Shown here: piece by piece, positions 4,120 to 32,828 of the stretch
How positions within the stretch are numbered: the first letter of the stretch is position 1
Layout: every line of letters starts with the position of its first letter
Source of the DNA: Patescibacteria group bacterium
GTDB taxonomy: Bacteria > Patescibacteriota > Minisyncoccia > Phycocordibacterales > BOKC01
Assembly (NCBI GenBank): GCA_038062955.1
Contig: JBBTWE010000001.1
Coordinates: 389,640-453,639, forward strand
Direction: 5' to 3'
Length of the DNA: 64,000 bases
Notes under the pieces: generated by a model
Told to the model about the DNA's origin: nothing
The model's database searches: none
The model's input: only the letters and a program-made list of their open reading frames with translations
Translations under genes and position numbers: made by a program

Positions 4120-5322
4120 TTAATAGTTTTTAAGCCTATCTATTTTTTCGTGGATGCGGAGTTTTTCGAGCGCTTTGGCTTCGATCTGTCTTATACGTTC
4201 ACGAGTCACACCGAATTCCCTTCCCACTTCTTCTAGGGTATGAGTGATGCCATCCACCAAACCATGTCTCATCTCTAGGATTCTGCGTTCTTTTGGAGGT
4301 AAATCATTTAAGATATCTTTGACTTGATCTGCCACAATTCTTCTTGAAGTTTCTTCTGACGGAGAAAGAATTTTATCATCAGCAATAAAATCTCCTAAAG
4401 TGGACTTACCATCATCTTCATCGGGACCAGCCGGACTTTCTAACGACACCGTGCTTTGATCAATTTTTTCGATATTGTATATCTTATCGACATCCAAATT
4501 CATTTCAATCGCAATTTCTTCCTGAAGTGGGTCTCTGCCCAAATCTTGGGCTAATCTCCTCACAACCTGCTTGTATTTGGCAATCGTTTCCACCATATGA
4601 ACTGGTACTCTTATAGTTCTCGATTGATCAGCAAGAGACCTTGTAATGGCTTGTCTGATCCACCAAGTAGCATAAGTTGAGAACTTAAATCCCTTATTCC
4701 AATCAAATTTATCGACGGCTTTAAAGAGACCTAAATTACCCTCTTGAATTAAGTCGAGAAGCGTTAAATCTGGACTTCGGCCAACATATTTCTTGGCAAT
4801 AGAAACCACCAATCGAAGGTTAGAGCGAGCTAGAATATTTTTCGCCTCTTCATCCCCAGTTTGAATTTTCTTAGCTAATTCTTTTTCTTGAGCACCGGAA
4901 ATCAAGGGATATTGGCCAATTTCTTTCAAATACATTTGGATAGAATCGTGTGACAGAGAATCCTTGTAGATATCTTTGCCTTTCCCATTTTCTTCTGGGG
5001 TATCTAAAAGATTACCTCCCTCCAAAAGGTCTATTCCGGCATTGCTCAATTTTTCATAAAGCGAATCCAAAGACAAAATATCATCCTCAATAGTGGGAAA
5101 TTCTCTTAGAATTTCATCATAAGTTATAAAACCTCTTTCTTTTCCTTTCAAAATCAGCTTATCAATAGCCAAATCTATTTTTTTATTTTTGGCTGATTTT
5201 GGAAGATTTTCACTTTCAGGAAGCTCTTTGGTGGCTTTTTTGCGAGTAATTCCCTTAACCTTGGGCTTTTTTGCCTTTTTTATTTTTACTTTTTTTACTG
5301 CTTTTTTCTTTGTTTTTTTCAT
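4120..5322 (-). CDS. rpoD: RNA polymerase sigma-70 factor RpoD
   Basis: Regions 2-4 signatures: [63 protein letters not shown]; lysine-rich N-terminus. Confidence 0.95.
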
Positions 5323-5457
5323 CCCGTTGTGAAATTTCAGGTCGTTCTTCGCAAGCTCGGAACTATCCTGTTATTTTTTGGCTCATTCTTAATAAATAAA
5401 TTTAATTCTTTTATGCATTCCGTAGTAAGTATTTACAACCTGAAATTCTACTACGGG
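5323..5457. repeat. Hairpin repeat family 1 (CCCGTAGT-stem element), copy 1, directly abutting the rpoD ATG
   Basis: Terminal inverted repeats cccgttgtgaaatttcaggt / acctgaaattctactacggg around ~95 bp of AT-rich core; ~85% identical to 25849-26003. Confidence 0.7.
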
Positions 5458-5467
5458 ATTCTCATTT

Positions 5468-7177
5468 TTAAATTTTGACTTTCCTCATATTCATTTCATT
5501 TATATTTTTGCTTATCTTTTTGCAGTTTTCTAAAATTTCCGCCGCTCTTTCTTTATTACCAGATTTTTCAGCCGCAGTTAATTCCTTCATCGCGTTTTGA
5601 AAATCAATTTTTAAAGTCTCCTCTTCTAAATTAAAAAATAAGTCTTCTAAAATATTTTCTATATCCGCCCTCCCATCAAAATAAGTTTCGGCTTCAAAAA
5701 TTAGTTCGCTTTTCCTTTTCTCCAAAATGAGAATGCTCTCTTTATCTTTTAACTTATCCTCTAATCGTTCCCTGAAAGATTTAATTTTTGGAGAATCTTT
5801 ATTTAAACTTTCTTGCCAAAAAATAATACCTATAATTCGACTTATAATATTGAATTGCCTGCTTTCTAAGGTTTTTTTAATATTATCACTGACGGCTATT
5901 GTATCTTCATCACTATTTGGAATTTTTTTCAAATCTTCTCGCAAGGCTTGTTCGTTCACGCCTGTCTTATGAGATATTTCAACCAAAAATCTCGATTGAT
6001 CGATATTTGATGGTAACAGTTTAACGAAAGGTAGAACCCTGTTTTTGATTTCTTGATCCATAAGCCTATCCGACATTTTTGATGAAACGATTTTTCCAAG
6101 ATAAAAATCGATGATATGACTTGAATCTTTCAAAATAGACTCCCAGATTTTTGGATCTTTTGCGATAACACTTGCAGGGTCTTCATCTTCCGGCAATAGA
6201 GCAATTCTTACATTCATTCCCAAAGAAAGACCGAGTTTGGCGCTTCTTTCAATTGCCTTAAAACCAGCTTTGTCGCCATCATAAGCTAAAATAATCCTAG
6301 AAGAAAGATGGTTGAGCTTATTGAGTTGAAGCAACGTGAGCGCGGTGCCTGAAGTCGCAACGGTATTATCAAATCCAGCTTGATGCGAAAGCAGAAGATC
6401 CATTTGCCCTTCTACAAGCACTGAATAATTTTTCTTCTTTATTGATAACTTGGCTCTGTCAAAACCATAAAGCACTTCCGATTTATTGAACAATTCAGTT
6501 TCAGGACTGTTTAAATATTTTGGAATATTCTCTTCTTCTTTCAACACCCTTCCAGAAAAAGCGATTGCGCGTGACGCCGTATCAAAGATTGGAAACATTA
6601 TTCTGCCCCTAAAAACATCGTAAAATTTATTATTTTCTGTTTTTTTGGCCAAACCTGCTTTTAAAAGTTCAGAATCCTTAAAACCTTTAGCACGACAAAA
6701 TTCAATCATTGACTGCCACATTGGCAAAGCGAATCCTAAACGCCACTCTTTTATTATTTCCTGATTCAATCCTCTTTTGATTAAGTAATCGTAAGCGTTT
6801 TTATTCTTCTTAAGATTTTCTTCAAAAAACCCTGTCGCAACCTCAAGCAATCTAAACAATCTGTCTTTCTCAAGTTTGCTTTCACTGGTTTCAAATTCGA
6901 GAGGAATGCCAGCATTCATAGCCAGGACCTTCAAGGCGCCTTTAAAATCCAGTCCTTCGAATTGCTCCACAAAACTAAAAATATCTCCTTTAGCTCCGCA
7001 TCCGAAACAATAAAAAGATCCTCTTGCGGGCGAAACAAAAAAAGATGGAGTCTTTTCATTATGGAAAGGACACTTAGCCTTAAAATTTGATCCGGCTTTT
7101 TCGAGTTTAATGTAATTGCTTAAAACATCAACAATACCAAGTCTTTCTTTTATTCGGTCTACATTTGAAGAAGACAT
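5468..7177 (-). CDS. dnaG: DNA primase DnaG
   Basis: Zinc-binding CPFHNEKTPSF...CFGCGAKGD; TOPRIM VLVEGQMDLL...DGDKAG. Confidence 0.93.
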   Translation of the reverse strand: MSSSNVDRIKERLGIVDVLSNYIKLEKAGSNFKAKCPFHNEKTPSFFVSPARGSFYCFGCGAKGDIFSFVEQFEGLDFKGALKVLAMNAGIPLEFETSESKLEKDRLFRLLEVATGFFEENLKKNKNAYDYLIKRGLNQEIIKEWRLGFALPMWQSMIEFCRAKGFKDSELLKAGLAKKTENNKFYDVFRGRIMFPIFDTASRAIAFSGRVLKEEENIPKYLNSPETELFNKSEVLYGFDRAKLSIKKKNYSVLVEGQMDLLLSHQAGFDNTVATSGTALTLLQLNKLNHLSSRIILAYDGDKAGFKAIERSAKLGLSLGMNVRIALLPEDEDPASVIAKDPKIWESILKDSSHIIDFYLGKIVSSKMSDRLMDQEIKNRVLPFVKLLPSNIDQSRFLVEISHKTGVNEQALREDLKKIPNSDEDTIAVSDNIKKTLESRQFNIISRIIGIIFWQESLNKDSPKIKSFRERLEDKLKDKESILILEKRKSELIFEAETYFDGRADIENILEDLFFNLEEETLKIDFQNAMKELTAAEKSGNKERAAEILENCKKISKNINEMNMRKVKI

Positions 7178-7185
7178 AAATGTAA

Positions 7186-7307
7186 TTCAAAGGTCAAAAA
7201 TCAAAAGTCAAAATTTAAAGTTAAAAGTTATTAATTTAAAATAATTTTATTCTTTTTTACTTTTGAATTTTGAATTTCAATTTTGAGTTTTGCCTTTTGA
7301 ATTTTGA
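7186..7307. repeat. AT-rich long inverted repeat family 6 (aaaagtcaaaat / attttgactttt units), copy 1, in the dnaG-rpoC intergenic region
   Basis: Left arm 7186-7232 and right arm 7258-7307 are complementary; homologous to 27003-27116. Confidence 0.55.
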
Positions 7308-7337
7308 CTTGAGTATTATTTGTAATTCGTGTCGTGT

Positions 7338-14870: not shown

Positions 14871-17800
14871 TTACGGTTGGCTGATTATCTTATTTCTTGT
14901 TATAGGGCCGAAATATCCTACTGCTGGACTAAGACCATTTAAGCGTTGAAATTTTATCAGCGCCACTTGGGTAAGATTTCCAAAATAAGTCCCCTCATTA
15001 CCTGGTGAACCAATGCCTGAAGAAGCAATAACGAATCCATGAGTATTCAAGAAGACTTGCAATGCTCGAACATCTGGCCCAACCGAACCAACGGTAAGGT
15101 CTCGAGAGAAGGTAGAACTAATGACGGGTGTCTGCAATCCCTGATTTGCTCGTTGTTCTAGCAGAGCCAAGAGAGTGGCTCGCAAACTTGTGAGAAGGTT
15201 CTGAAGTTCAGCAATGGTCATCTGACTTGTTGGTCTGTTAGGTTGATTGTTTCCTTGATTGTTGTTAGAAGCTCCACCGCCAGATGAACCACCTCCGCCG
15301 CCTCCCCCTCCTCCACCACCACCGCCACCAGTATTTGTATTTTCAGTCCTTCCTTCATCTTCATTAGACCAAGCCGAAGCTCCGATAGTATTCACTGCTC
15401 GGACACGATATTCATATGTTGTGTTCACTGATAGACCGGTATCGGTAAATGTTTGTGTATTGATTGGCAGATTTGATGCAGAAGAAAGAGAAGTAAATGA
15501 GTCTGGAGATATTCTTCTTTCAACTTCAAATCTGGTTTCATTGTTGCTGTTGTCGTTCCATGATAGGCGAAGTTCGGATGGACCAAGTACTGTAACCAAG
15601 AGAGAAGATGGTGCAGATGGAGCTGTTAGTTGTTCAACAACCAAAGGTAGTCTGTTACTAAACTGTCCATCAGCGTTTCGTACTCTGAAATCATGAGTGC
15701 CGACAGATAGCGAACCAGCTAGGAATTCGAATCTGATAACAGAAGTGCTTAGGACACTGGAAGTCTGGTTAGAACAATTTTGACCAGAACATCTTTGAAG
15801 AGTGGCGCCTGGGAAATCAAAACCTGAACCATAGAAATCGATTTGTCTGTTTTGATTGGATGATACGGTCGAAGGAGAGATACTTGCGAGAACTGGGGTT
15901 TGGGCAACAACTGTTCCTGCGGTTCCGCTTCCAACAACAGATATCCCTGCTCCACTTGTTGTGCCTTGAGCAACAGAAGACCATGCTGAAGATCCGACTA
16001 CATTGTATGCTCGGACACGATAGCTGTAGCTTGTGTTTGGGGTTAGATTCGTGTGAGTGAATGTGGTGACGCCTGCCGCGACTGTTCCTGCCGGTAACCA
16101 AGTACTTGCTGAAGTTAGTCGGTATTCAATATTGAATCCTTGTTCATTAGAGCTTGTGTCAGACCAATTTAGACGAAGTTGGGTAGAGTTAAGTGCTGTT
16201 ACTCCCAGATTAGATGGAGTAGATGGAGCTCCGGATTGCACAGTGAGAGTGTATGGAGTTGTCCTGACCAAAGAACCTGCGGTTGCAGTCAGAGTGAGAG
16301 GATATACAGCGACAGGTGTGGTTGTTAGGGTGGTGATGGAGAGAGTAGAAGTACAAGTTGGATTTGGTGTGCAAGAAGTTGGAACAAAAGAGAACGAGCC
16401 TTGGGCAGAAGTAAGACCGTTTGCTTGAAAACTGACAACTTCAGAAGCACCGGCTGTCTTTGTGACAGTGAGAGTTGTTTGGGTAGATTGTCCTTGTTGA
16501 ATAGAGCCTGATATTGGGTTTGTGGTGAGGTTGAAGTTGAAAGCAGTAACAGTTGTGCCCTGGGCTACGTTAGACCACGCGGAAGATCCAGCTGTGCCCA
16601 CGGCTCTTACATGATATTCGTAAGAAGTTCCAGCAGAGAGTCCTATGTCGGTGTAAGTGGTTGTGTTAGGGGGTAAATTTGATGCCGCTCCAATAATTGC
16701 AAATGTTCCGCTAGGCAATAATCTTCTTTCTATTTCGAAACGGGTTTCGTTACCACTATTATCAGACCAATTCAGACGAAGTTGTGAAGTACTCAAAGAT
16801 GTAATTATTAGATTTGATGGAGGGATTGGAGTGCTTTGTAAGGTAGTGCCAGTCGCAATACTAGACCATGCAGAGGCCCCAGCAGTGTTGTAAGCTCGCA
16901 CACGGTAGTCGTAAGAAGTATTGGAGAGAAGACCAGGATGAGTGAAGGAAGTGATACCTGCAGCCAGGGTGCTAGCACCCGGAACAGTTAGCCAAACAGA
17001 AGCGGTGGATGGTTTGTATTCTAGTGTAAATCCTTGTTCGTTGGTACTACTGTCAAACCATGTAAGAAGTATGCTCGTACTTGTTTGGCCAACAGCCACT
17101 AAATTAGTTGGCGCGTTTGGCGATACTTGCGCAGTAGAACCAGAAGCAACTGGTGTCCACGCCGAACTGCCAACAGTATTATAAGAACGCACCCTATAAT
17201 CATAAGAAGAATTTGGCACAAGACTTGAATGAGTAAACGTATTAACGCTTGCCACTACTGTGCCTGCGGGGAGCCAGGTGCTTGCCGAAGATAATTTGTA
17301 CTCTATATTAAACCCTTGTTCGTTGGTGCTGTTGTCATTCCAAGTCAAACGTAACTCCGACGAACTCATTGTTGTAATTATTAGATTTGATGGCGGGTTG
17401 GGTATTGTTTGTGAAGTTGTACCAGAGACAGTGGAAGACCACGCTGAATTGCCAGCTGTATTATGAGCGCGTACTCTGTAATTATAAGTGGCATTTGCGG
17501 TCAAATTAGAATGTGTGAATGTGGTCACACCTGCCCCAACCGTACCCGCCGACAACCATGTGCCAGAAGAAGCTAATTTGTAATCTATATTGAATTCTTG
17601 TTCGTTGTTACTGTTATCGTTCCAATTTAGACGAAGTTCTGATGAACTCACTGTTGTTACCGTAAGACCAGATGGAGCACTTGGTGGGTTAGACGGAGTC
17701 CCTGCTTCAAAATAAAGTCCCCACATAGCATCAGCGAATTGACTACTATACCCGCCCCCATGACCCACCATGTGGAGATTTGGAAATCTACCTATACCAT

Positions 17801-19466
17801 TTGCGGGATTAGTATCTAGAACACAATTACCAGGACTGCCGCTAAGTGGTCCGTAAGTAACTCCGTACGCGGAATTTGAAGGGGCTCCTCCTGAAGTTGG
17901 ACTCGTAAGAGAACATGTACCATTTCCTGGACACGGAAAAGAGACAGTTCCTGAACCTGAACTATAAGTTGCAACCGCCGAACTGCATGCGGCTCCTGGA
18001 GTGCTTCCTCCAACACAGACTCCAGGCGCTGGAGCACAAACATCTGGTTGTGTTACTGCACCAGAAGGAACCCATCTTGCTAAGTAATCAATTGATAACT
18101 GGTTATTCCAAACATTAATTCCTCCGGGCAAAAGAATGGTCGCCAAAGTTCCACCTACGGCATCATTTGAGAATGTTTGCTGATAACCGTTAAGAGGATA
18201 AAGACCCCCATCAATATACCGATATGGATCAATACAAGTTTTTGACCCAGGATCAGTATTATGAAGAACCGTCCAATAAACTCCATCATTACAGTACTGT
18301 ATTTCTTGTGAAGCTACAGGAACACCTGTCCTGTTTAAGGTGGCAATACTGTTCTCTCCGAAAACAGCTAAACCGCTACCACTTACAAAATTTTTCATTG
18401 CTTGATTATTTAAAAGTATTCCCGCGAAAGCGATTGGCGCTTTTCTTCCATTTTCATGACCTCCTCCACCAGCAGTGCTGTAGTCTCCTCCATTTAAAAC
18501 GACACCGTAATAATCAATTCCTGCCTGAACATAGTTAATGATTGCATCCATCTTTAGGGACAAAGAGTCATTTAAAATAATACGCAAAGCTGCATTCCCA
18601 GTATTCAAAGCAATATCCCCTCCGTACGCCTGCATATTTTTATCAGGACGGATTCTGCCAAATTGCCATCCAGGGTAATCCAACTGAACTCTTCGAAAAT
18701 TGCTTTCGACGGTGGCAAGGGATGGAATAGTAACTCCGCTTGGTGGAGTCAAAGAAGGGAGCAACCCCACCTCAAGATTGAGAGTGCTATAAAGTGTTTT
18801 TTGAGTCCCAGCAAACCCTGGTCTGAATGAATTTGTTCCACTACTTGTGGGAATACTTGTGAGTACAGTAAGAACAGCGGCGGTATCAACATAGCAAGTT
18901 TGACCAGGATTATTTTCACAAACGGGAGATACGTCTGAATTAGAAATTGTTTTAATGATAGACGATGGTGTAGTGATAGTAATAGGAAGTGATGGAACTA
19001 GAGCAGCATTATAGGCATCACCACGAGAATCATAACCTTGTGATGTAAATTGTGCTGGATTAATTTGAAAGCCATTTCTTCCACCAGAAAAATTTGGTGT
19101 GATGCTGGTAATTGTGACCGGCGAAACAACCCACCAGTCCCCATTCACAAATTGTCCGCATTCCACAGATTGAGAAAAAGTCCAAGTAATTCCATATTGA
19201 GTGACAAAATCGCAAGTTGGAAGATCTGGACCATTTTCTTCTGGAACTGGTTGAGAAGGAAGTATTGGTATGTTTGTTGAAATGGGCGCACTTCCTTGAT
19301 TTCCATCTTCATCAACAACGAGGACACTTAAGAAAGACAGGCTTAAGTTTTTAAGGTCTATCTGTTTTACCCCAATGCCATTTATTAAAACAAATGAAAA
19401 TGTAAAAACGATAACAATCAAGAGAACTGTGATGCTAAATAATTTTTTCATCTTTTTTCCTGACAT
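14871..19466 (-). CDS. Giant secreted or cell-surface protein (1531 aa): N-terminal signal/TM, large beta-rich domain, about 8 fibronectin type III repeats, poly-Gly linker, C-terminal peptidoglycan-binding (PG_binding_1-like) domain
   Basis: Hydrophobic N-terminus LFSITVLLIVIVFTF; repeated ~90-aa units LRLNWSD.S.NE.GF.IE...Y.YRVRA.N..G.S.WS; GGGGGGGGGGGGGG linker; C-terminus FGPITR / LQ..LN..GF motif. Confidence 0.85.
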   Translation of the reverse strand: MSGKKMKKLFSITVLLIVIVFTFSFVLINGIGVKQIDLKNLSLSFLSVLVVDEDGNQGSAPISTNIPILPSQPVPEENGPDLPTCDFVTQYGITWTFSQSVECGQFVNGDWWVVSPVTITSITPNFSGGRNGFQINPAQFTSQGYDSRGDAYNAALVPSLPITITTPSSIIKTISNSDVSPVCENNPGQTCYVDTAAVLTVLTSIPTSSGTNSFRPGFAGTQKTLYSTLNLEVGLLPSLTPPSGVTIPSLATVESNFRRVQLDYPGWQFGRIRPDKNMQAYGGDIALNTGNAALRIILNDSLSLKMDAIINYVQAGIDYYGVVLNGGDYSTAGGGGHENGRKAPIAFAGILLNNQAMKNFVSGSGLAVFGENSIATLNRTGVPVASQEIQYCNDGVYWTVLHNTDPGSKTCIDPYRYIDGGLYPLNGYQQTFSNDAVGGTLATILLPGGINVWNNQLSIDYLARWVPSGAVTQPDVCAPAPGVCVGGSTPGAACSSAVATYSSGSGTVSFPCPGNGTCSLTSPTSGGAPSNSAYGVTYGPLSGSPGNCVLDTNPANGIGRFPNLHMVGHGGGYSSQFADAMWGLYFEAGTPSNPPSAPSGLTVTTVSSSELRLNWNDNSNNEQEFNIDYKLASSGTWLSAGTVGAGVTTFTHSNLTANATYNYRVRAHNTAGNSAWSSTVSGTTSQTIPNPPSNLIITTMSSSELRLTWNDNSTNEQGFNIEYKLSSASTWLPAGTVVASVNTFTHSSLVPNSSYDYRVRSYNTVGSSAWTPVASGSTAQVSPNAPTNLVAVGQTSTSILLTWFDSSTNEQGFTLEYKPSTASVWLTVPGASTLAAGITSFTHPGLLSNTSYDYRVRAYNTAGASAWSSIATGTTLQSTPIPPSNLIITSLSTSQLRLNWSDNSGNETRFEIERRLLPSGTFAIIGAASNLPPNTTTYTDIGLSAGTSYEYHVRAVGTAGSSAWSNVAQGTTVTAFNFNLTTNPISGSIQQGQSTQTTLTVTKTAGASEVVSFQANGLTSAQGSFSFVPTSCTPNPTCTSTLSITTLTTTPVAVYPLTLTATAGSLVRTTPYTLTVQSGAPSTPSNLGVTALNSTQLRLNWSDTSSNEQGFNIEYRLTSASTWLPAGTVAAGVTTFTHTNLTPNTSYSYRVRAYNVVGSSAWSSVAQGTTSGAGISVVGSGTAGTVVAQTPVLASISPSTVSSNQNRQIDFYGSGFDFPGATLQRCSGQNCSNQTSSVLSTSVIRFEFLAGSLSVGTHDFRVRNADGQFSNRLPLVVEQLTAPSAPSSLLVTVLGPSELRLSWNDNSNNETRFEVERRISPDSFTSLSSASNLPINTQTFTDTGLSVNTTYEYRVRAVNTIGASAWSNEDEGRTENTNTGGGGGGGGGGGGGGSSGGGASNNNQGNNQPNRPTSQMTIAELQNLLTSLRATLLALLEQRANQGLQTPVISSTFSRDLTVGSVGPDVRALQVFLNTHGFVIASSGIGSPGNEGTYFGNLTQVALIKFQRLNGLSPAVGYFGPITRNKIISQP

Positions 19467-19500: not shown

Positions 19501-22500
19501 TCACTGTCCTATCAATGCTCTCGTTTTTGGTCCAAAATATCCGAGCGCAGGAACAACACCTTTTGATCTTTGTAGTCTTGCTAAAGCCGCTCTCGTCAAA
19601 TCTCCAAAATAGGTACCTTCATTTCCTGGTGAACCGACACCGACAGATGTGATGACGAATCCGTGAGTATTCAAGTATATCTGCAAAGACCTGACATCAG
19701 GACCTTCCGAACCAACTGTGAGATCTCTGGTGAATGCCGCACTCACGATTGGAGATTGTCCTGCTTGGAGAAGAGCTCTCTGTTCAAGTAGAGCAAGAAG
19801 AGTTGCGCGTAAAGATGTCAGAAGATTCTGAAGTTCTGCTATAGTCATTTGGCTTCCAGGTCTTGAAGGGTTGTTTCCTTGATTGTTGTTGTTGTTTGAA
19901 GCTCCGCCGCCAGATGAACCTCCACCGCCACCACTAGAACTACCACCTCCTCCCCCTCCGCCACCGCCGGTTCCGCCTGAATTTCCTCCACCACTAACTT
20001 CCCCAGTCGTACCTTGCGCAGTAGGTGACCATGCAGAACTACCAATAGAGTTGTATGAGCGGACACGGTAATCATAAGCTGTGCTTGCCGATAAGCTTGA
20101 ATGAGTGAAACTGGTTGTGCCGGCTGAAAGCGCGCTTGCCCCTTGAACTCCCGACCATGAACTTGATGAAGATTGTTTATATTCTAATGTGAATCCTTGT
20201 TCATTAGTACTTGTGTCAACCCAATTTAATAGAAGACTTGTAGAAGATTGCGCAGTGGCAACCAAATTAGAAGGAGCGTTAGGTATCGCATTCAAAGTCG
20301 TTCCAGAAGCAAAAGTGAGAGGGTGCCAAGGAGAGGCTCCTCCGGTGTTCACTGCTCGTATTTGGTATTCGTAGTAAGTGTTGGGAGTTAGATTGATGTT
20401 TGTGAATGTACCTTGAGCTGAACTGCTACCAGGAACAGTAGCTACCAAAACCCAAGTCCAGTTGGTAAGTTGTTGTCTTCTCTGAACTTCGAAACTGACT
20501 TCGTTGTTACTGTTGTCGTTCCAATTTAGACGGAGTTGGGACGAACTTAGAGGAGTGATTGTGAGAGAGGATGGTGTGGAAGGGGCTTGAACTCCTCCGC
20601 CAATTATAACTCCTGTGGAAGGGGCTTGCGCCCAACTAGTGCCAGCTCCCCCCGTCGTGCCGGAAGCCAAGTTAGACCATGCTGAAGCTCCAATAGCATT
20701 AACCGCTCTTACACGATATTCATAAGAAGTACTTGCTGACAATCCACTATTAGCAAAGGTTTGGGTATTAGGTGCTAAGTTTGAAGCCGCTGGAATGATT
20801 GCAAATGTTCCGTTAGGCAACAATCTTCTTTCTATCTCGAAACGAGTTTCATTAGTACTTGTGTCAACCCAATTTAATAGAAGACTTGTAGAAGATTGTG
20901 CGGTGGCAACCAAATTAGAAGGAGCGTTAGGTATCGCATTCAAAGTCGTTCCAGAAGCAAAAGTGAGAGGGTGCCAAGGAGAGGCTCCTCCGGTGTTCAC
21001 TGCTCGTATTTGGTATTCGTAGTAAGTGTTGGGAGTTAGATTGATGTTTGTGAATGTACCTTGAGCTGAACTGCTACCAGGAACAGTAGCTACCAAAACC
21101 CAAGTCCAGTTGGTAAGTTGTTGTCTTCTCTGAACTTCGAAACTGACTTCGTTGTTACTGTTGTCGTTCCAATTTAGACGGAGTTGGGACGAACTTAGAG
21201 GAGTGATTGTGAGAGAGGATGGTGTGGAAGGGACAGGTGGCTGAACTGTGACTGGTCGTCTAACGCTAACTTGATTATCAAGATTCTTGACTCGAAATTC
21301 ATAAGTCCCGGGAGTAGCTCCTACTCCAAAATCAAGTCTTATGAGTTGAGAACTCATTTGTGTAAATCCGGGGACAGCTCCGCACACGGTAACACAAATC
21401 TCCAAAACTGCTCCGGGATTATCAAAATTATTACCATTGAAACTAAGGGTATTGTTCTGTGCGTTAGTAATCGTCGAAGGAGTAATGCTAACTAAGTTAG
21501 GCGCTGATGATGTGCTTCCACCTCGAGGTAGAAACGCCCATTGAGGATTCTCCTGTCGTTTCTGAATATAATTTGAATTTGGATTTGTGTTTGCAACATT
21601 AAAAATCCAATTCCAAGCCTGGTTTCCAAGGGGGACGTCAGTAAGATGGGAAACTGCTCCCATAATCATAGTGGAATAACCATGATTAGGGTCCCTAAAA
21701 CCATCTATAAAATAATCAAAAACTGTTGCTAAATGGGCTGGGAGAAATTGCTCCGTAATGCTTTCGTATGTATTGTAATAAGAATTATTCGCTACATTAA
21801 ATATTGGTGTCCGATATTCAGAAACAAGAGCCTTAATAGTATTATTGGAGTGATTAAGAAAGCCGGTAAGATATTCACCGAGATAATTCTTAAGCGGCCC
21901 GGAGGCGTATCCTAAATCTTCCAAGTGTCCGAGTGTATAAACCAAAAGCCCTTGTTGCCATGTCCCATCAACAGCATAACCTAAAGGATTTACGGCTGGA
22001 ATCGGATAATTTATCTCACCAACACCAATATGGTGTAATGAGGGGGGTGTAGTGATTCCTCCCATCCAGCGAAGGGAACCTAGGACGTTCCTTCCCCAAT
22101 TCCACATAGTACTATTTGTATAGGCTGTACCAGTAATTCTAAAGAGACCTTCTTTTGAAGCAATATATTCTTGAGTAAGCAAATCAAAGTGGCTCTTTTC
22201 TTCACTTCCTTGAGGAGAAAGAAAAGCTGTTCGCCCTCTTATCTGCATACAGCGCGCTTCTCCTCTTGTCTGGATTCCATTCAAATCTCCCTCTTTTCCT
22301 GTCGGGCCCCTGCTATAAGCTAAATTGCCATATGAGCTGGATAGAGAACCGTAAGATGACCAAAACCAAAGTTCTTCGAGATACCAATAGTCTCCTGAAA
22401 GCGCGTACTGTATTGAATAAGGATCTGGAATATGTGCACAATCAGGATTCCAAGAATTTGAAGCGTGAGGTCCAACAATATTAACCATGTCAGAAGGAAG

Positions 22501-23877
22501 ACTATAAGCATTTATAAATCTAAACCCTGGGCGCGCGTTAGGAGACAAAACCTTCCCAGTAGCATTAACCGTATTTGAACGGTCAAAAAATCTTCCGGTA
22601 GAACCCTCCCTTAAATGAACGGGCCAAGCGGCAGCCAAATCCGCCATTCCAGAATTCATTTTTGCAAAGCGAGAATCACCTGTAAAAAGCCAGTAAACAG
22701 TCCACTGCGGCCAAGGGCCGAGTTCAGGCCTACCTCCGGTAGACCCCATATCAAGCATGTAACTTCCAGAATCGTACAAATCTTTCGGTCTTGAAAGCCA
22801 AGCCGACGAATAATAATTAGTTAAAATATTTGATGGAATAACTATACTGGTGTCATAATTTGAAATAAATCCAGTCTCTTTGAGATATTCAAGATTATGA
22901 TCAATGGCGATCTCTCCCGGTTCCCCACCAATCCAGAATTCTTTAGTCCACCTAGTAGCAAGATAATGGTTCACATTATTTTTTGTGTAGACAGTCAGAG
23001 GATTAGAATTACCTAAAGTAAGGGAAAGGTTGTACTGCATATCTTGCAATACCTGGGAGTTTGCCACTTCACCAATATATCTAACCCGAACCTTGCCAGC
23101 CCTAGGAAAAAAAGTTGCGATAAATATAGGCCTGAAAGATTTATAAGTGTCGAAACCAATGTCATATCTTCTTGCGGTAGAATGATCCGCAAGAATTATT
23201 GAGGTAGACTCTGAACCTTTTAGCCAGTATTCAAATTCATTATCGGAGAGCATAGTGCGTGCAGAAGCAGACACAGTGCTTGGACCAGTAAGTCCTATTG
23301 TTGCTCCAAAGTTATATGGAGCGCCAAGCATATTATTCTGTGTTAAGAATGCTTGATTGTTTCCAGTCTGTTGGTTTTGAAATGTTGCAACAATTTGTTG
23401 ATTTGGATTTAATTGCGGAATATAAAACGACATTATTACATGCTTCGCGCTTCCGTCTCCCCATCTAGTTTTTACATCTGATTGAGTAATTACTGGAGTT
23501 CCGTTAAGTAAAACTTGCGGATAGTTGTTTATTTCCCCTTGAGCGAATATCCTTCCAGTCTGAACGGGATAATTTGTGGTACTTTGTCCAGCCTTTTCAG
23601 TAATTGTTATAAAATTGTTTGGATTATCGGTGCCAATTTCTCCACCTTCTTCTGGGGTTGGCGGCACTGGAGGTAAAGGCAACGGTAGGGGTTGCGGTTC
23701 TAAAGGTCCTTCTGCACCAGTCTGATCTCCAGTATCATCAACAGTAGAAATACCCAAAAAAGACACAGCTAAATTTTTGAGATTGATGTCACTTATTCCT
23801 GTTCCATTGATCAGAGCGAAAGAAAAAGTTATAACAATGATAATGAGGAGACCAATTATGAGGAGTGTTTTTTTCAT
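19501..23877 (-). CDS. Paralogous giant surface protein (1458 aa): signal/TM, Pro-rich segment, ~800-aa domain of unknown fold, FN3 repeats, Gly/Ser linker, C-terminal peptidoglycan-binding domain
   Basis: Same architecture; C-terminal ~120 aa nearly identical to the neighbour (SQMTIAELQNLLTSLRATLLALLEQRA...). Confidence 0.85.
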   Translation of the reverse strand: MKKTLLIIGLLIIIVITFSFALINGTGISDINLKNLAVSFLGISTVDDTGDQTGAEGPLEPQPLPLPLPPVPPTPEEGGEIGTDNPNNFITITEKAGQSTTNYPVQTGRIFAQGEINNYPQVLLNGTPVITQSDVKTRWGDGSAKHVIMSFYIPQLNPNQQIVATFQNQQTGNNQAFLTQNNMLGAPYNFGATIGLTGPSTVSASARTMLSDNEFEYWLKGSESTSIILADHSTARRYDIGFDTYKSFRPIFIATFFPRAGKVRVRYIGEVANSQVLQDMQYNLSLTLGNSNPLTVYTKNNVNHYLATRWTKEFWIGGEPGEIAIDHNLEYLKETGFISNYDTSIVIPSNILTNYYSSAWLSRPKDLYDSGSYMLDMGSTGGRPELGPWPQWTVYWLFTGDSRFAKMNSGMADLAAAWPVHLREGSTGRFFDRSNTVNATGKVLSPNARPGFRFINAYSLPSDMVNIVGPHASNSWNPDCAHIPDPYSIQYALSGDYWYLEELWFWSSYGSLSSSYGNLAYSRGPTGKEGDLNGIQTRGEARCMQIRGRTAFLSPQGSEEKSHFDLLTQEYIASKEGLFRITGTAYTNSTMWNWGRNVLGSLRWMGGITTPPSLHHIGVGEINYPIPAVNPLGYAVDGTWQQGLLVYTLGHLEDLGYASGPLKNYLGEYLTGFLNHSNNTIKALVSEYRTPIFNVANNSYYNTYESITEQFLPAHLATVFDYFIDGFRDPNHGYSTMIMGAVSHLTDVPLGNQAWNWIFNVANTNPNSNYIQKRQENPQWAFLPRGGSTSSAPNLVSITPSTITNAQNNTLSFNGNNFDNPGAVLEICVTVCGAVPGFTQMSSQLIRLDFGVGATPGTYEFRVKNLDNQVSVRRPVTVQPPVPSTPSSLTITPLSSSQLRLNWNDNSNNEVSFEVQRRQQLTNWTWVLVATVPGSSSAQGTFTNINLTPNTYYEYQIRAVNTGGASPWHPLTFASGTTLNAIPNAPSNLVATAQSSTSLLLNWVDTSTNETRFEIERRLLPNGTFAIIPAASNLAPNTQTFANSGLSASTSYEYRVRAVNAIGASAWSNLASGTTGGAGTSWAQAPSTGVIIGGGVQAPSTPSSLTITPLSSSQLRLNWNDNSNNEVSFEVQRRQQLTNWTWVLVATVPGSSSAQGTFTNINLTPNTYYEYQIRAVNTGGASPWHPLTFASGTTLNAIPNAPSNLVATAQSSTSLLLNWVDTSTNEQGFTLEYKQSSSSSWSGVQGASALSAGTTSFTHSSLSASTAYDYRVRSYNSIGSSAWSPTAQGTTGEVSGGGNSGGTGGGGGGGGGSSSGGGGGSSGGGASNNNNNQGNNPSRPGSQMTIAELQNLLTSLRATLLALLEQRALLQAGQSPIVSAAFTRDLTVGSEGPDVRSLQIYLNTHGFVITSVGVGSPGNEGTYFGDLTRAALARLQRSKGVVPALGYFGPKTRALIGQ
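20186..21235. repeat. Near-identical internal tandem duplication (about 400 bp repeated with a 650-bp period) inside the FN3 region of the second giant gene
   Basis: 20186-20585 and 20836-21235 are almost base-identical; the identical 75-aa antisense ORFs in the track are a symptom of this. Confidence 0.7.
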
Positions 23878-23956: not shown

Positions 23957-24967
23957 TTAGAAAATAGACAAAGCTATGAAAGCCACTCCGAGATAAATAA
24001 GCACACTTAAAACATCACTGATAACTGTTGAAAAAGGACCCGATGAAATAGCTGGGTCAAATTTAAGTTTATAAAAAATCCACGGTAGAAGCAGGCCAAA
24101 ACAAGTAGAGATGAGGATGGTTAAGAAAAATGAAATTCCAATAATAAGAGTGATTAAAAGTTCATTCCATAAAAAATAGGTCAAAAGGGTGGCGGCAATA
24201 CTTAAGGACAGGGCTAATAGCAATCCTACAGAAATCTCCCTTCTGATATAACTTTTTAGGGCCATTTTTTTATCAATAAAAAAACTTCTGATAAAAATGG
24301 TTTGTGTTTGTGACCCAACAGCATCAGCTATGTATACAACCGATGGAATAAAAGATGCCAAAATAATCATTTTAGACAATGTATCTTCAAAAAAACCTAT
24401 AACGATAGCGGCTAAAAAACTGCCCAAGAGACCGAAGACAAGCCATGGCAATCTTTTCTTGAAATGTTCTGAAGCGGACGCAGTAATAAAATCTTTTGCG
24501 GAATCATGTTTTAAAATACCGCTTCCACGAAGTGCGTCTTCAATTCCCTCCTGATGTAATACGTTTAAGATAACGTCGGATGGCACGACCCCCAAAAACA
24601 AACCTGATTTGTCGACTACGGGAATATTTTTTAAATTATGCTGGATAGCAAGGAGAGCAACTTTTTCTCTGTGAGTATTGGGCGAAACAGTAATAAGATT
24701 TGTTTTCATAACACGAAATATCGGCATGTTCTTCCCAATTCTGAAAAGCTCTTTAATGGACAAAACTCCTTTGAGAATCCCTTTTTCATCCACAACATAA
24801 ATATAGTTAATGTTTTCAAGCTTCTGTATATCCTTGAGCAGAAGACTTTCTATTGCTCCGATATTCAAACCTTGAAGCACAATTGGAATTTTCTTTGTAA
24901 GAATATGTATTGCCGATTCTCGAGGAAAGCTCGATTGGGAATTATTTTTTGTTTCTTCTTGAACCAT
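23957..24967 (-). CDS. mgtE: Magnesium transporter MgtE (CBS pair + MgtE transmembrane domain)
   Basis: CBS-like IYVVDEKGILKGVLSIKEL...IPVVDKSGLFLGVV; C-terminal polytopic TM region; start placed at internal Met (MVQEE) 11 nt after the upstream stop. Confidence 0.85.
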   Translation of the reverse strand: MVQEETKNNSQSSFPRESAIHILTKKIPIVLQGLNIGAIESLLLKDIQKLENINYIYVVDEKGILKGVLSIKELFRIGKNMPIFRVMKTNLITVSPNTHREKVALLAIQHNLKNIPVVDKSGLFLGVVPSDVILNVLHQEGIEDALRGSGILKHDSAKDFITASASEHFKKRLPWLVFGLLGSFLAAIVIGFFEDTLSKMIILASFIPSVVYIADAVGSQTQTIFIRSFFIDKKMALKSYIRREISVGLLLALSLSIAATLLTYFLWNELLITLIIGISFFLTILISTCFGLLLPWIFYKLKFDPAISSGPFSTVISDVLSVLIYLGVAFIALSIF

Positions 24968-24978
24968 GAATTTTGAGC

Positions 24979-25848
24979 TTACTTTAAGTATACAACTGGA
25001 TTTGTTTTGCTTATCGCGGCTACTATTGCACCAATAAGCAACACTTGGGTGGAATAATACACCCAAAGCAGAACCGCGATGAAAGATCCGGAAGCGCCGT
25101 ACACAGCGTCATTGGTATAGAAAAGGTTGAAATATAGTATAAGAGCGGCATTGAGAAAACCAAAGAGTATAGTGCAAATGATTGCTCCTGTGAGTGAGCT
25201 TTTCCATGTCGTCTTCTTACTTCCTACAGTTTTGTACATAAGGGTCAAAAGCAAAATCGTTGAAACGAAAACTAGGAAAAAATTAAGCAATTGTGATTTT
25301 GCAAAAAATTCCAAGCCGAAAAAGTTCGCGGAAAAACTTAAAATTAAGGGCGCAATGACACTTATAAAAACAATCATTAAAATTAAAAAAACTAGATACA
25401 CACTAAAACCTAAAGATTTTAGATAATTCAGAAATGTTTTCTTTAAGTTTTCATCCAAGCCTAACTTCACTCCAAAAATCGCAAAAAAAGATCCTTTTAA
25501 AGTATTGAAAAAGTGCGACAAACCATAGAAGGTTATGAAAAAACCAATAAAAGAAAAAGTTAGGTGTGATTTTGACTGTTTTAGACTTTCAATTAAATCA
25601 TTAATAAAAGATGTGGATTGTTCACCAACTCTATTTTGAAAAAAAGTTAAAAGACGCGTTTCGGCTATGCTTTGATCAATTATTAAACCGCTAAGTGAGA
25701 CAAAAATAATAATGAGTGGCGCCATAGCAGAGATAGCGTAAAAAGCCAAAGCAGCAGCATGCTTTGGGATTTCCACTGATTTTATCTTCGGTATAATTTC
25801 TCCAAAAAAACTTAGTTTAGTTTTTCGGTGATGGAGGGTGACATTCAT
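24979..25848 (-). CDS. YihY/BrkB-family inner membrane protein
   Basis: AAALAFYAISAMAPLIIIFVS signature and about 6 TM helices. Confidence 0.8.
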   Translation of the reverse strand: MNVTLHHRKTKLSFFGEIIPKIKSVEIPKHAAALAFYAISAMAPLIIIFVSLSGLIIDQSIAETRLLTFFQNRVGEQSTSFINDLIESLKQSKSHLTFSFIGFFITFYGLSHFFNTLKGSFFAIFGVKLGLDENLKKTFLNYLKSLGFSVYLVFLILMIVFISVIAPLILSFSANFFGLEFFAKSQLLNFFLVFVSTILLLTLMYKTVGSKKTTWKSSLTGAIICTILFGFLNAALILYFNLFYTNDAVYGASGSFIAVLLWVYYSTQVLLIGAIVAAISKTNPVVYLK

Positions 25849-26003
25849 CCCGTAGTGAAATTTCAGGTCGTTCTTCGTAAGGCTGCGAACTATCCTGATA
25901 TTTTTTGGTAATTTTTAATAAATAAACTTAATTCTCTTATGTGTTCCGTGGTAAGTGTTTGCAACCTGAAATTCCCTGTCTGCCGACAGGCAGGTACTAC
26001 GGG
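25849..26003. repeat. Hairpin repeat family 1, copy 2, abutting the yihY ATG, carrying a nested copy of GC palindrome family 2 (25975-25994) in its distal arm
   Basis: cccgtagtgaaatttcaggt ... acctgaaattc[cctgtctgccgacaggcagg]tactacggg. Confidence 0.7.
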
Positions 26004-26012
26004 ATTCATATA

Positions 26013-26973: not shown

Positions 26974-27002
26974 ATAACTTAAAATTCAAAAGGCAAAAAT
27001 CA

Positions 27003-27116
27003 AAATTGAAAGTAAAAAGTCAAAATTAGCTTTATGTGCATTCACTTTTGAATTTTGAATTTAAATTTTGACCTTTGATTTTTGCCTTTTGACTTTATCA
27101 TAAAGGATAAAGCTCT
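27003..27116. repeat. AT-rich long inverted repeat family 6, copy 2, in the trmD / KH-protein spacer
   Basis: Arms 27003-27048 and 27064-27116; homologous to 7186-7307. Confidence 0.55.
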
Positions 27117-30430: not shown

Positions 30431-32665
30431 CTACTTGGCGACAGCCAACGCCTCCTCAAACGCCACCGATAGGATTTTAGAATATCCATCTTTGCCCATA
30501 GTTACCCCATAGAGCACTCCAGCGCGTGACATCGTTTCTCGATTGTGAGTAATTAAAATAAGCTGTGAACTTTTGGCGAGGGACTCGAGCATGTCTCCAT
30601 AACGCTTTGAATTAGCTTCATCGAGAGCCGCATCTGTTTCGTCCAAGATAAGAAATGGTGGAGGGTTTACTTGAGAGACAGCAAAAATTAAAGCAATTGA
30701 AATAAGTGACCTCTCGCCACCAGAGAGCATCTCAAGTCCCCTTACTTTTTTCCGAGGCATGGATACTTTTATATCTAATCCTTCTCGCTCTTCCTCATCT
30801 CCAATAAAATCTGGATTATTTTCATCCAAAATCTCACCAGCCTCATCTTCGTCATTTTTCTTTTTTCTCATTCTTTCTTTTACCACAGTTAAGCTGGCCG
30901 ATCCCCCGTCGAACATGAGAGCAAATAGAGTATTAAATCTGTCGTTTATTTTTAGAACTCCACTTTTAAAACTTTCATTAAGCTCAACTTCCAAATCTTT
31001 TATAAGTTTCTTTAAAGAGTCTGATGAGGTTTGGAGATCTGCAAGTTCCTTTTCTAAGAAGATATCTCGCGCAGTAATATCATTAAATTCTTTCTCGACA
31101 TCAGGGCCAATTCCCCCAGCTTCCTCAAGTCTGATTTTTATTTTTTCGATCTCGCGTTTAAGAGCAATACGATCAGCATTCGGGGCAACTTTCGCCTCTT
31201 TTTTTAGAAAATCCAAGACAGCCTCACCGGAAACGACTTTCGCCTCTTTAAGATCATTTTGAAAATTTTGTTCTTCAAAAGAAAGTCTTTTTTCTGATTC
31301 TTCCAAATGATAAATTGCCGCCCGCAAGGAACTTTCCTCGGCTTTCATCCGAAAAACACTTCTTTCTAGGTCTCGACTAACATCCTTTTCCTTCTCTATT
31401 TCATCCTGCAAAATCTTAAAAGAATTCTGAATATCTTCCTCTCTCTTTCTCGTGCCGACTATCTTTAATTCTAGTGTCGATTTCTCTCCCTCCAAACGCG
31501 CTAGTTCAACCTCATAATTATTATCTTTTTCTACAACCTTTTCGCTACGCAATAAACTGGAAATTCCTTGAAGAAATTTTTTGAAAATGCTCTTTAAAAA
31601 AGAAATATCAGTACTATTTTCAATTTTTGCAGAAAAATCTTTTAATTCTTTTTCCAGTTTTTCTACTTCTTCTCGCGAGATATTAAGCTTTTCTATACTA
31701 GTATTTTTATTTAGTTCGATTACTCTTTTTAAAGAGGCAATCTGTCCTTCAAACCGGCCCAAATTGCGAGTCAACGAATCTTTCTCAACTCTTAATTCAC
31801 CTAAACTTTTCTCCAAATCAAAAAGCCTTGTTTTTTTCTCATCCGGTGCGCCGGTTTTGAGCATTTTGGTCTTAACCTGTAATTCTTTTTCGAGCCTCAC
31901 CAAAGAAGCTTGAGGAACGTTTTTTTCTCCAACCAATCTTTCTTTTTCGCGGTCGAGGTAAGCGCGCTCCAAGGTCAAATATCCGCCAAAAATTTTTCGG
32001 AGTTCGAGACGGAGTTCTTTATTCTTCTGCAGCTTTTCAAACTGTCGCTTTAAAAATTTAATGTGAGGCGAAAGCTCGCGGCGGAGAGAGCCGACTTGTT
32101 TTATATTTTCTTCAGTCTTAAGTAGTTTCTTCTCGCTTTCTTGTTTTTTATAGTGATAGATTCGGAGCCCCAAAGCGTCCTCAATCATTGCCTTCCTCTC
32201 AGGCATTTTGGCATTTAAAATTTTATCTGCCTCTCCTTGAGAGATGATGTGATGTCCTGATGGTCCAATATGAGTTGGCGCAAGCATCTCAACAATATCC
32301 CGAAGGCGTACTTGAGTGCCATTTAAAAAATATTCATTTACTCCGTCTCGATAAACAGCTCTTTCCACCGTCACCTCCTCAAAATCAAGATTTAAAAATT
32401 TCTTGCGATTATCAAAAGTTATTTTAACTGAAGCTCGTGAGCTTTTTGGCATTTCAGTTGTGCCGTTCCAAATCAAATCTTCACCCTTCCTACCACGCAT
32501 GGATTTAATCGATTGCTCGCCTAAGGCAAAACGAAAAGCTTCCGCCACATTAGACTTACCTGAACCGTTTGGTCCCACAATCGAAGTAATTGGGCTACCA
32601 AATTCCAAAACCGATTTTTTGGCAAATGATTTGAAACCCTGAAGTTCTAATCTTTTTAACATCAT
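30431..32665 (-). CDS. smc: Short SMC-like ABC-type ATPase (744 aa)
   Basis: N-terminal Walker A GPNGSGKSN, extensive coiled coil, C-terminal signature LSGGERSLISIAL and Walker B ILDETDAALD. Confidence 0.85.
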   Translation of the reverse strand: MMLKRLELQGFKSFAKKSVLEFGSPITSIVGPNGSGKSNVAEAFRFALGEQSIKSMRGRKGEDLIWNGTTEMPKSSRASVKITFDNRKKFLNLDFEEVTVERAVYRDGVNEYFLNGTQVRLRDIVEMLAPTHIGPSGHHIISQGEADKILNAKMPERKAMIEDALGLRIYHYKKQESEKKLLKTEENIKQVGSLRRELSPHIKFLKRQFEKLQKNKELRLELRKIFGGYLTLERAYLDREKERLVGEKNVPQASLVRLEKELQVKTKMLKTGAPDEKKTRLFDLEKSLGELRVEKDSLTRNLGRFEGQIASLKRVIELNKNTSIEKLNISREEVEKLEKELKDFSAKIENSTDISFLKSIFKKFLQGISSLLRSEKVVEKDNNYEVELARLEGEKSTLELKIVGTRKREEDIQNSFKILQDEIEKEKDVSRDLERSVFRMKAEESSLRAAIYHLEESEKRLSFEEQNFQNDLKEAKVVSGEAVLDFLKKEAKVAPNADRIALKREIEKIKIRLEEAGGIGPDVEKEFNDITARDIFLEKELADLQTSSDSLKKLIKDLEVELNESFKSGVLKINDRFNTLFALMFDGGSASLTVVKERMRKKKNDEDEAGEILDENNPDFIGDEEEREGLDIKVSMPRKKVRGLEMLSGGERSLISIALIFAVSQVNPPPFLILDETDAALDEANSKRYGDMLESLAKSSQLILITHNRETMSRAGVLYGVTMGKDGYSKILSVAFEEALAVAK

Positions 32666-32828
32666 TAAATTACAGATTCACGATTCATGATTCAAGAATT
32701 TAAGATTTCCCATTCATGAATCGTGGTTCTTGAATCTTGAATCTATTTTATAACGAAATGGAAAAACAGGCACTATCCAAAAAGATTTAAGATTTACGAT
32801 ATATGATTTACGATTTGAAATTCAAGAC

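Follow-up and report, generated by a model that had tools for sequence, protein, structure and literature searches.

Five short hairpin-forming sequences, three of them directly at the start codons of genes, are present in a 64,000-nucleotide stretch of DNA from a Patescibacteria group bacterium (assembly GCA_038062955.1, contig JBBTWE010000001.1, positions 389,640 to 453,639; the whole stretch is referred to here as the window). It is very probable that these hairpins are copies, lacking an open reading frame (ORF), of a mobile palindromic family that is tied to an element encoding a GIY-YIG nuclease. The family moves with a 4-bp duplication of its target, the start codon is regenerated on insertion, and the arms are found exclusively with a single-domain GIY-YIG gene. 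Taken as a whole, the probable explanation is that the window hairpins are non-autonomous copies of a GIY-YIG-linked, start-codon-inserting element of Patescibacteria, and the GIY-YIG protein itself may well be the mobilising enzyme.

The window has a GC content of ~39%, nearly all of its genes are on the minus strand, and pieces identical to its DNA are present in Hainich groundwater metagenomes. Five copies of a hairpin element had been listed in a first-pass annotation of this DNA, and direct reading found each of them within 1 nt of the positions given there. The window contains the 8-mer CCCGTAGT 10 times, where 0.38 occurrences would be expected, and none of 100 shuffled sequences got to 10. 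Nine of the matches are element ends, and the one end that departs from the 8-mer, on the left of copy 1, is CCCGTTGT. A solo CCCGTAGT at 24615-24622 on the minus strand, within an mgtE-like gene, has neither a partner end nor a match to the model described below and is probably due to chance. A covariance model trained on copies from other genomes only recovered these five copies in the window and nothing else, and oriented copies 1, 2, 3 and 5 on the plus strand, with copy 4 inverted. The copies, their flanks and their internal features are as follows.

5322-5458, plus strand: copy 1, 137 nt including the terminal T:A pair, without an ORF; 41.2 bits
5318-5321 and 5459-5462: flanks of copy 1, TTCA and TTCT, matching at three of four positions
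5420-5427, plus strand: internal end-like half-site CCGTAGTA in copy 1
25848-26004, plus strand: copy 2, 157 nt, without an ORF, adjoining the yihY/BrkB ATG; 17.1 bits, E=0.11
25844-25847 and 26005-26008: flanks of copy 2, TTCA and TTCA, an exact duplication
25946-25953: half-site CCGTGGTA in copy 2, the weaker counterpart of CCGTAGTA
25975-25994, plus strand: self-pairing 20-nt insertion CCTGTCTGCCGACAGGCAGG in the right arm of copy 2, not in copy 1 (alignment and predicted fold)
33650-33688, plus strand: copy 3, minimal form of 39 nt with arms and a triloop, C:G terminal pair; 51.6 bits
33646-33649 and 33689-33692: flanks of copy 3, TCAA and TCAA, an exact duplication
34648-34786, minus strand: copy 4, 139 nt, without an ORF, inverted; 51.3 bits on the minus strand
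34644-34647 and 34787-34790: flanks of copy 4, TCCA and TCCA, an exact duplication
63900-63966, plus strand: copy 5, 67 nt, outer stem and inner hairpin; 60.7 bits

The low model score of copy 2 is due to its 20-nt insertion. Copies 1 and 2 are 88% identical across 136 nt and have their interior in common at unrelated loci; therefore, the ORF-less form itself was copied. The genes beside the elements are rpoD (after dnaG), a YihY/BrkB-family gene, rnc (after a nusB-NUDIX fusion) and a prepilin-type gene. Copy 1 lies between the dnaG stop codon (5468) and the rpoD ATG, copy 4 lies between the nusB stop codon (34804) and the rnc ATG, and copy 5 lies 30 nt upstream of the prepilin-type gene (ATG at 63870). 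The left flank of copy 3 reads G-TTGACA-17 nt-TACTCT on the minus strand, which is a promoter adjoining the element at its -35 box.

The direct-repeat flanks of the window copies, which had been overlooked before, explain their position relative to the genes. The plus-strand CAT triplets of rpoD (5320-5322), yihY (25846-25848) and rnc (34646-34648) directly adjoin the elements, and the earlier statement that three copies end at position -1 of the ATG was confirmed by direct reading for these genes. This position is a consequence of the target-site duplication. Read on the gene strand, copy 2 is arranged as ATGAAT, element, ATGAAT and copy 4 as ATGGAT, element, ATGGAT, and the repeated flanks thus leave copies 1, 2 and 4 with a second start codon at their distal side.

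5463-5465, minus strand: distal duplicate of the rpoD start codon (ATGAGAAT followed by the element); its frame ends at the TAG within CCCGTAG
26007-26009, minus strand: distal duplicate of the yihY start codon (ATGAAT followed by the element)
34789-34791, minus strand: distal duplicate of the rnc start codon (ATGGAT followed by the element), 12 nt past the nusB stop codon

The exact placement at the start codon without a Shine-Dalgarno sequence results from the insertion mechanism together with the Shine-Dalgarno-independent initiation of the lineage, and it is not evidence for a leader. The lack of a Shine-Dalgarno sequence had been described correctly for these sites, but it is a genome-wide trait rather than a property of the sites: the core motif was found upstream of 4 of 38 genes, a frequency equal to that seen for random ATGs. 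In 11 of the 38 genes, a TAnnnT hexamer precedes the ATG by 4-9 nt, compared with 9% of random ATGs, and the picture points to mRNAs that are frequently leaderless in this genome. It was reported that the anti-Shine-Dalgarno motif has been lost in part of Parcubacteria (PMC9297842). The idea that a -10 box borne by the element makes the proximal ATG leaderless was also considered and was rejected, as the terminal TTTCAC and TTCTAC are by eye unlike TAnnnT.

Orthologous loci were compared in relatives that were located through Rnc and RpoD homologues and whose contigs are syntenic with the window. The nusB-rnc site is empty in five relatives (L120-L125), in which the nusB stop codon is followed by 17-36 nt and ATGGATTTTT, where the window has ATGGAT, 137 nt and ATGGATTTCTCT. 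The dnaG-rpoD site is likewise empty in L253, L254 and L256, and the RpoD proteins of L253 and L254 are 96% identical to that of the window. At this site, a relative at 96% RpoD identity has TAA, 14 nt and ATGAAAAAAACAAAG, and the window has TAAAAATGAGAAT, 135 nt and ATGAAAAAAACAAAG. Neither the covariance model nor the 8-mer detected a copy in ~93 kb of syntenic DNA of the relatives.

The wider family was collected by scanning species-representative genomes for both conserved ends 11-71 nt apart, which gave at least 115 loci. The listed loci are nearly all from the Candidate Phyla Radiation (CPR), including Nomura-, Nealson-, Zambryski-, Wolfe-, Vogel-, Yanofsky-, Kaiser-, Uhr- and Peregrinibacteria and Paceibacterota. 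Direct repeats of at least 4 nt flank 81 of the 118 listed copies, against ~12 of 118 when the flanks were randomly re-paired. The best register adds one base pair to the element, which is complementary in 109 of these copies (C:G in 95, T:A in 14), and outside this terminal pair 57 copies have an exact duplication of 4 bp and 16 have one of 5 bp. A 6-bp duplication, as ATGAAT and ATGGAT might suggest, was rejected: the outer positions match in 35% of copies, compared with 61-70% for the inner four. The target preference can be written as T(T/G/A)(G/A/T)(A/G). TTGA/TCAA makes up 46% of the 4-bp duplications and 1.2% of intergenic 4-mers, a 37-fold enrichment, and CAAG and TATG are enriched 15-18-fold. 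Copies nested within the inner hairpin of another copy, with 7-bp repeats, were found in L053 and L061. In L211 and L165, a full-length and an ORF-less copy form tandem arrays, each copy lying between repeated ATGGAT, and therefore the regenerated site was hit again. The earlier suggestion of a mobile palindromic element that targets translation start regions is thus upheld by the duplications, the empty sites, the nested and tandem insertions and the adjacency to start codons.

The placement of the copies differs with their size. Among 115 listed short copies in other genomes, 21 adjoin a full promoter (G-TTGAC[AT], 17-18 nt, TAnnnT), 9 adjoin a -10 box with an ATG and a long ORF beginning 4-9 nt beyond it, and 18 adjoin a start codon. 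The short ORF-less copies are mostly at TTGA, and in genomes as compact as these TTGA mainly represents the -35 hexamer. The long ORF-less copies (128-170 nt) that were seen all adjoin a start codon, namely window copies 1, 2 and 4, two copies in L022, and those in L076, L013 and L116; with the 303-nt copy of L069 added, the count is nine of nine. Scattered gene-facing pairs resembling -35 and -10 boxes occur within several of the long copies, including TGGTATAAT in L211, and no position is conserved among them.

The element consists of inverted arms of ~20 bp (19-22 bp), of which the outer 12 nt are conserved. At one end this sequence is Y-CCCGTAGT-GAA, and at the other it is TTC-T-ACTACGGG-R; that is, one end is CCCGTAGT-GAA and the opposite end is CCCGTAGT-A-GAA. 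Because the ends are unequal, one base is bulged in every folded form. The inner arm sequence varies freely while pairing is kept. Typical listed copies of 60-80 nt have an outer stem of ~20 bp and one or two small inner hairpins, and their loops are most often C(TTC)G, C(TTT)G or C(AAA)G. RNAalifold analysis of 108 copies from other genomes gave an outer stem of 19 pairs, and pairs 13-20 each showed 34-54 double-sided changes with pairing kept. The compensatory pairing described for the window copies holds both there and in these 108 copies. Compared with dinucleotide shuffles, the interiors are more structured on both strands, with mean z values of -1.9 and -2.1. The covariation and the structured interiors together indicate that pairing is selected or mechanistically maintained, with no tie to an RNA of fixed strand. 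An alternative local fold of CCGTAGTA with TACTACGG is possible in copies 1 and 2, as had been proposed, but the other copies lack it and it is not a feature of the family. The further proposal of two mutually exclusive structures was not supported, as the alternative fold is unused in the minimum-energy folds of copies 1 and 2. No window copy matched Rfam at the gathering threshold or at E<0.1.

A full-length form of the element was found at L069, where the arms of the 303-nt copy enclose a single 85-aa ORF that matches the Pfam family GIY-YIG (PF01541) with E=8.6e-18. Full-length elements are 300-320 bp long and have their arms around one single-domain GIY-YIG gene of 85-92 aa, which fills the loop exactly. 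The encoded proteins match PF01541 only, plus an overlapping weak T5orf172; a weak match to a group I intron endonuclease model was also obtained, and the best solved relatives are the UPF0213 proteins. A total of 612 homologues were found at roughly 70% identity or above, all of them from Patescibacteria where named, and the catalytic Y3, Y5, Y16, G18, R26 and E50 as well as other core residues are conserved in at least 95%. Seven of seven loci picked by protein similarity alone have the arms and an adjoining co-directional host start codon. The six homologues beyond L069 have the same or variant arms (CCCGGTAGTG, CCAGTAGTAG), and their host genes are a proS-like gene, a DUF1003 gene, rplW, rpmF, a Na/H exchanger gene and an RNase T-like gene. 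The duplications at the protein-sampled loci are TATG, TGGA, TGGG or ATGA.

The same arrangement was obtained independently of the flanks by a metagenome scan for the left arm and the ORF start, in which the flanks were unconstrained and 110 loci yielded 74 unique complete elements (300-320 nt). A host ATG stands 0-2 nt past the right end in 68 of the 74 elements and a GTG in 3 more (71 of 74), and 61 of the elements have a copy of the ATG in the left flank, within its final 7 nt. The stop codon of the GIY-YIG gene is 14-22 nt before the host ATG, with the arm alone in between. A -10-like hexamer 4-9 nt upstream of the captured start was found in 20 of 30 cases, compared with 10% of random ATGs. 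Translation of the arm accounts for the N-terminal MP[RGS]SETS of 11 of 120 database homologues: one orientation class has the captured ATG in frame with the gene across the arm. Where the terminal pair is T:A, the element contributes its last A as the first base of the host ATG; where it is C:G in the same register, a GTG start results, as at rpmF in L248 and at the 605-codon ORF of L038.

The closest known kind of system is the Ssn/SRM module. Ssn is a single-domain GIY-YIG protein of ~94 aa that binds its hairpin repeat only as single-stranded DNA and cuts a few nt upstream, and its genes are flanked by SRM/NTS hairpin repeats, of which up to hundreds of copies are scattered through the genome (PMC11893778). 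The authors noted a layout like that of an insertion sequence (IS), proposed domestication, and put forward mobility as a hypothesis only (Chenal et al., 2025; PMC11893778). The two systems are alike in that both have a single-domain GIY-YIG protein of ~90 aa, a gene flanked on both sides by hairpin-forming sequence, dispersed ORF-less copies mostly outside genes, and a directional motif, which is a conserved one-base bulge in the CPR element and an asymmetric flank in Ssn. They differ in that the repeat sequences are unrelated (CCCGTAGTGAA compared with CGTCATTCCCGCG…GCGGGAATC), and the CPR repeat does not fit the SRM consensus CGTCATTCCCGCGMAVGCGGGAATCYRG. Furthermore, the flanks of the CPR element pair together, so that the gene is in the loop of one hairpin, whereas each Ssn flank is its own hairpin; the nearest solved relatives of the CPR protein are UPF0213 proteins, and it is not a shown member of cd10448. 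Target-site duplications, empty sites and insertion at start codons are features of the CPR element that are not reported for Ssn in the accessible parts of the account. At the CPR locus L017, a homologue lies between canonical SRM repeats, and it shares 40% identity with the CPR protein across the catalytic core. This different small GIY-YIG ORF (L017:2494-2643, from a CPR-associated metagenome-assembled genome) lies between GTCATCCCGAGCGGAGCGAGGGATCTCG and GTCATTCCGAGTGAAACGAGGAATCTCG, which resemble the Ssn-related motif. GIY-YIG ORFs between other inverted repeats were seen in L030 and L109 (CCCGTTAGAAAC…GTTTCTAACGGG and CCCGATTTC…GAAATCGAGG).

Based on these results, the following course of insertion can be proposed. 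The GIY-YIG nuclease is the best candidate for mobilising full-length and ORF-less copies alike, and by analogy with its Ssn relatives it may act on the folded single-stranded hairpin. Insertion duplicates 4 bp of the target, less often 5, and full-length and long ORF-less copies hit the start codon directly, using TGAA, TGGA, TATG or ATGA. Together with the terminal A of the element, the duplicated TG(A/G)A rebuilds the ATG at the coding sequence, and a TATG duplication suffices alone; the second copy of the start codon stays with the host promoter. For a full-length element, the result is a mini-operon composed of the host promoter, the captured start, the GIY-YIG gene, its stop codon, an arm of 14-22 nt and the host ATG, in which the captured promoter is typically leaderless with a -10 box 6-8 nt upstream. 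The placement at start codons could reflect target choice, survivorship, or the need of the element for a promoter and a start codon; a candidate route to target choice would be the exposure of single strands when an open complex forms at a leaderless promoter. In the window, copies 1, 2 and 4 inserted at codons 1-2 of rpoD, yihY and rnc after the split from the closest sampled relatives, and translation of these genes now begins directly at the base of a hairpin, which is tolerable because the lineage does not use Shine-Dalgarno pairing. Copy 3 duplicated the TTGA of a -35 box, and copy 5 is an upstream insertion without a clear duplication.

A bolder reading is that the full-length form is the smallest autonomous DNA transposon known, with ~310 bp, two 20-bp arms and an 85-aa GIY-YIG protein, a folded single-stranded DNA intermediate, targeting of leaderless start codons, capture of a promoter and of a 5'-terminal AUG, and a rebuilt start codon. 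We regard this reading as tentative; the chance that a new transposition system is at hand is a minority one, if a sizeable one.

Several points weigh against a mobile element driven by the GIY-YIG nuclease. At the level of single copies, the duplication at copy 1 is only three of four, copy 5 has a mismatched A/G terminal pair and no clear duplication (CTA at most), and about one third of the listed copies elsewhere have no clean duplication. The search patterns demanded canonical ends, and divergent members are under-sampled for this reason. No GIY-YIG copy was found in the window or in a 6-kb extension of it, so that a helper elsewhere in the genome is an assumption. A six-frame profile search for GIY-YIG remnants in the long ORF-less copies was non-significant against interior-shuffled controls (best p ~0.06-0.09), and in blastn comparisons of their interiors with those of sampled full-length elements only the arms matched; an origin of the ORF-less form by internal deletion is therefore unproven. 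Mismatches in the stems (28 G-T, 20 A-C) have no clear bias toward one folding strand. Target choice is inseparable from survivorship on these data. Finally, GIY-YIG enzymes are hydrolytic nucleases for which, to our knowledge, no strand-transfer activity has been described, and the origin of a 4-bp duplication by a hydrolytic nuclease is unexplained.

This last point also speaks for the strongest alternative, in which the hairpins are conventional miniature inverted-repeat transposable elements (MITEs) derived from an IS with a DDE transposase, for instance an IS1380-like one, and the GIY-YIG gene is a passenger or a parasitic homing-endonuclease gene. Terminal inverted repeats, a fixed duplication of 4-5 bp and ends beginning with CC would suit such an origin. 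In ISfinder, the IS1380 family is described with CC ends and a 4-5 bp duplication, and this match is a lead only. The piggyBac elements have a 4-bp T..A target and CCC ends. A relationship between IS1380 and piggyBac is documented (PMC5718144). As in MITEs such as the Correia elements of Neisseria, the window copies and their relatives are small and ORF-less, have inverted ends and a short fixed duplication, and are dispersed in many copies with insertion polymorphism. Correia elements are in addition co-transcribed with their neighbours as hairpins, and the CPR element can be likened to them in these features. However, in ~840 kb of element-bearing loci (the first 115 loci listed), ORFs between ends 170-3500 nt apart were ordinary genes only, with no transposase-like ORF and no DDE transposase among them. 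The GIY-YIG gene is the sole ORF ever enclosed, at all seven protein-sampled loci and in the 74 DNA-sampled elements. The single kind of partner with matching ends carries a GIY-YIG nuclease gene and no transposase gene. Arm variants such as CCCGGTAGTG and CCAGTAGTAG still accompany this gene, which fits a co-evolving unit rather than a passenger. The interiors vary with pairing kept and the start codon is regenerated on insertion, which is also unlike MITEs. A conventional MITE origin is accordingly considered unlikely.

A domesticated and essentially immobile system of the Ssn/SRM type, which would have a host role in transforming single-stranded DNA or in recombination and for which the repeats would be maintained sites, is a distinctly improbable account of the window copies. 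It could draw on the published Ssn, with its flanking repeats, hundreds of dispersed copies, effect on transformation and proposed domestication, as well as on the type IV pilin-like genes of the window and the strong conservation of the element ends across distant CPR lineages. Against this stand recent insertions, with empty sites in relatives whose proteins are 90-96% identical, and the duplications, nested and tandem insertions and use of different genes in different genomes, all of which indicate ongoing mobility. The views of domestication and of mobility are not mutually exclusive.

The first-pass annotation had also offered a structured leader controlling initiation, and a cis-acting RNA leader of this kind (riboswitch, attenuator or RNase III site) for the adjacent housekeeping genes might seem natural for a stable hairpin immediately 5' of an ATG, with abundant stem covariation and with interiors more structured than shuffled controls (z about -2). 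A 20-bp stem, if transcribed, would moreover be a substrate of RNase III. Yet the elements lie beside genes in both orientations, copy 4 being inverted, and they fold equally well on both strands. The same genes lack the element in close relatives, the adjacent genes have no common function, and most copies elsewhere are away from start codons, also at -35 and -10 boxes and at gene ends. Given in addition the lack of an Rfam match at E<0.1 and an alternative fold restricted to copies 1 and 2, the leader proposal did not survive, and an RNA leader is highly improbable.

Repetitive extragenic palindromic (REP) elements and REPINs mobilised by RAYT, an IS200/IS605-like Y1 transposase, are short intergenic palindromes that form hairpins in long-lived families with sequence-variable stems, and they resemble the CPR element further in a GTAG conserved near the outer end (CCCGTAGT), but such an assignment is hardly credible, since clear 4-bp duplications are present although transposition of the IS200/IS605 type makes no duplication, the sampled loci showed no Y1 transposase, and the associated gene encodes a GIY-YIG protein. 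The resemblance to REP/BIME/REPIN-RAYT and IS200/IS605 systems may nevertheless extend to the mode of recognition, in which a small nuclease encoded between or beside the repeats recognises them as folded single-stranded hairpins, as is predicted for the CPR element; the nucleases differ in fold (HUH/Y1 compared with GIY-YIG).

The GIY-YIG-linked mobile element also recalls the free-standing GIY-YIG homing endonucleases (the T4 seg genes, the catalytic domain of I-TevI), which are likewise selfish genes built around a GIY-YIG domain and inserted between or at the edges of essential genes. Unlike them, the CPR protein has no DNA-binding domain, the element has inverted repeats and duplications, and the insertions are spread over many genes without homology to each other instead of being tied to a single cognate allele. 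No description of the element or of its end sequence was found in searchable full text, which mostly excludes subscription journals, and a prior description is possible.

The results imply that the ultra-small, gene-dense CPR genomes host an active and widespread mobile element, whose safe harbour is a start codon or a -35 box. This harbour is safe because the duplication of the target rebuilds the signal and because these lineages initiate translation without Shine-Dalgarno pairing, often on leaderless mRNAs. As far as the accessible account of Ssn goes, the duplications, empty sites and nested and tandem insertions are the first sequence-level evidence for mobility of an Ssn-type nuclease/hairpin module. 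If the autonomous transposon reading is true, the mobility that was hypothesised there for Ssn would become a demonstrated class of transposable elements with new chemistry. For annotation, gene callers stretch GIY-YIG ORFs through the arm (giving the MPRSETS forms) and call spurious ORFs across hairpins, and start codons are possibly misplaced, for instance where ATG has become GTG at rpmF in L248. The insertions can serve as strain-level markers for groundwater populations, and the nuclease/hairpin pairs of the family could serve as tools for single-stranded DNA.

Other features of the window were also recorded. A second palindromic family, rich in AAAGTCAAAA/TTTTGA, is represented at 7171-7310 and 26976-27096; the two copies are 77% identical over 116 nt, have arms of up to 62 nt, and lie directly upstream of the start codons of dnaG (7177) and trmD (26973). 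Two promoter-driven transcripts, 860-1045 and 33430-33615, both on the minus strand, begin with about CAGAAAATTGTTCATT-AAAAC. The promoter of the first reads TTGACA-18-TACCAT, and this transcript has a long-range stem (861-883/990-1012) on CTACGGC…GCCGTAG; the second starts from the promoter adjoining copy 3 and has a structured leader of ~190 nt that runs into the ORF at 32935-33426. Neither transcript matched Rfam at E<0.1.

The segment at 32666-33915, ~1 kb between rnc and smc, contains copy 3 and is not present in L120, a relative at 90%. It encodes a 163-aa ORF without a Pfam or NCBIfam match, which has a strong AAGGAGG Shine-Dalgarno sequence unlike its neighbours and therefore may be foreign. 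The adjacent SMC homologue (30431-32665) has 744 aa, compared with 745-750 aa in the relatives; this is roughly two-thirds of the usual length of bacterial SMC. A 385-nt direct repeat, 99.5% identical (20200-20584 and 20848-21232), lies inside a 1458-aa ORF (19501-23877), and diverged repeats are common to this ORF and the neighbouring 1531-aa ORF (14871-19466); no Pfam hit was recorded for either product. Downstream of rpoD, where the window has uvrD, the relative L253 (RpoD 96% identical) carries a reverse transcriptase gene and a bAvd-like gene (L253:4914-6197), and this locus looks like a diversity-generating retroelement.

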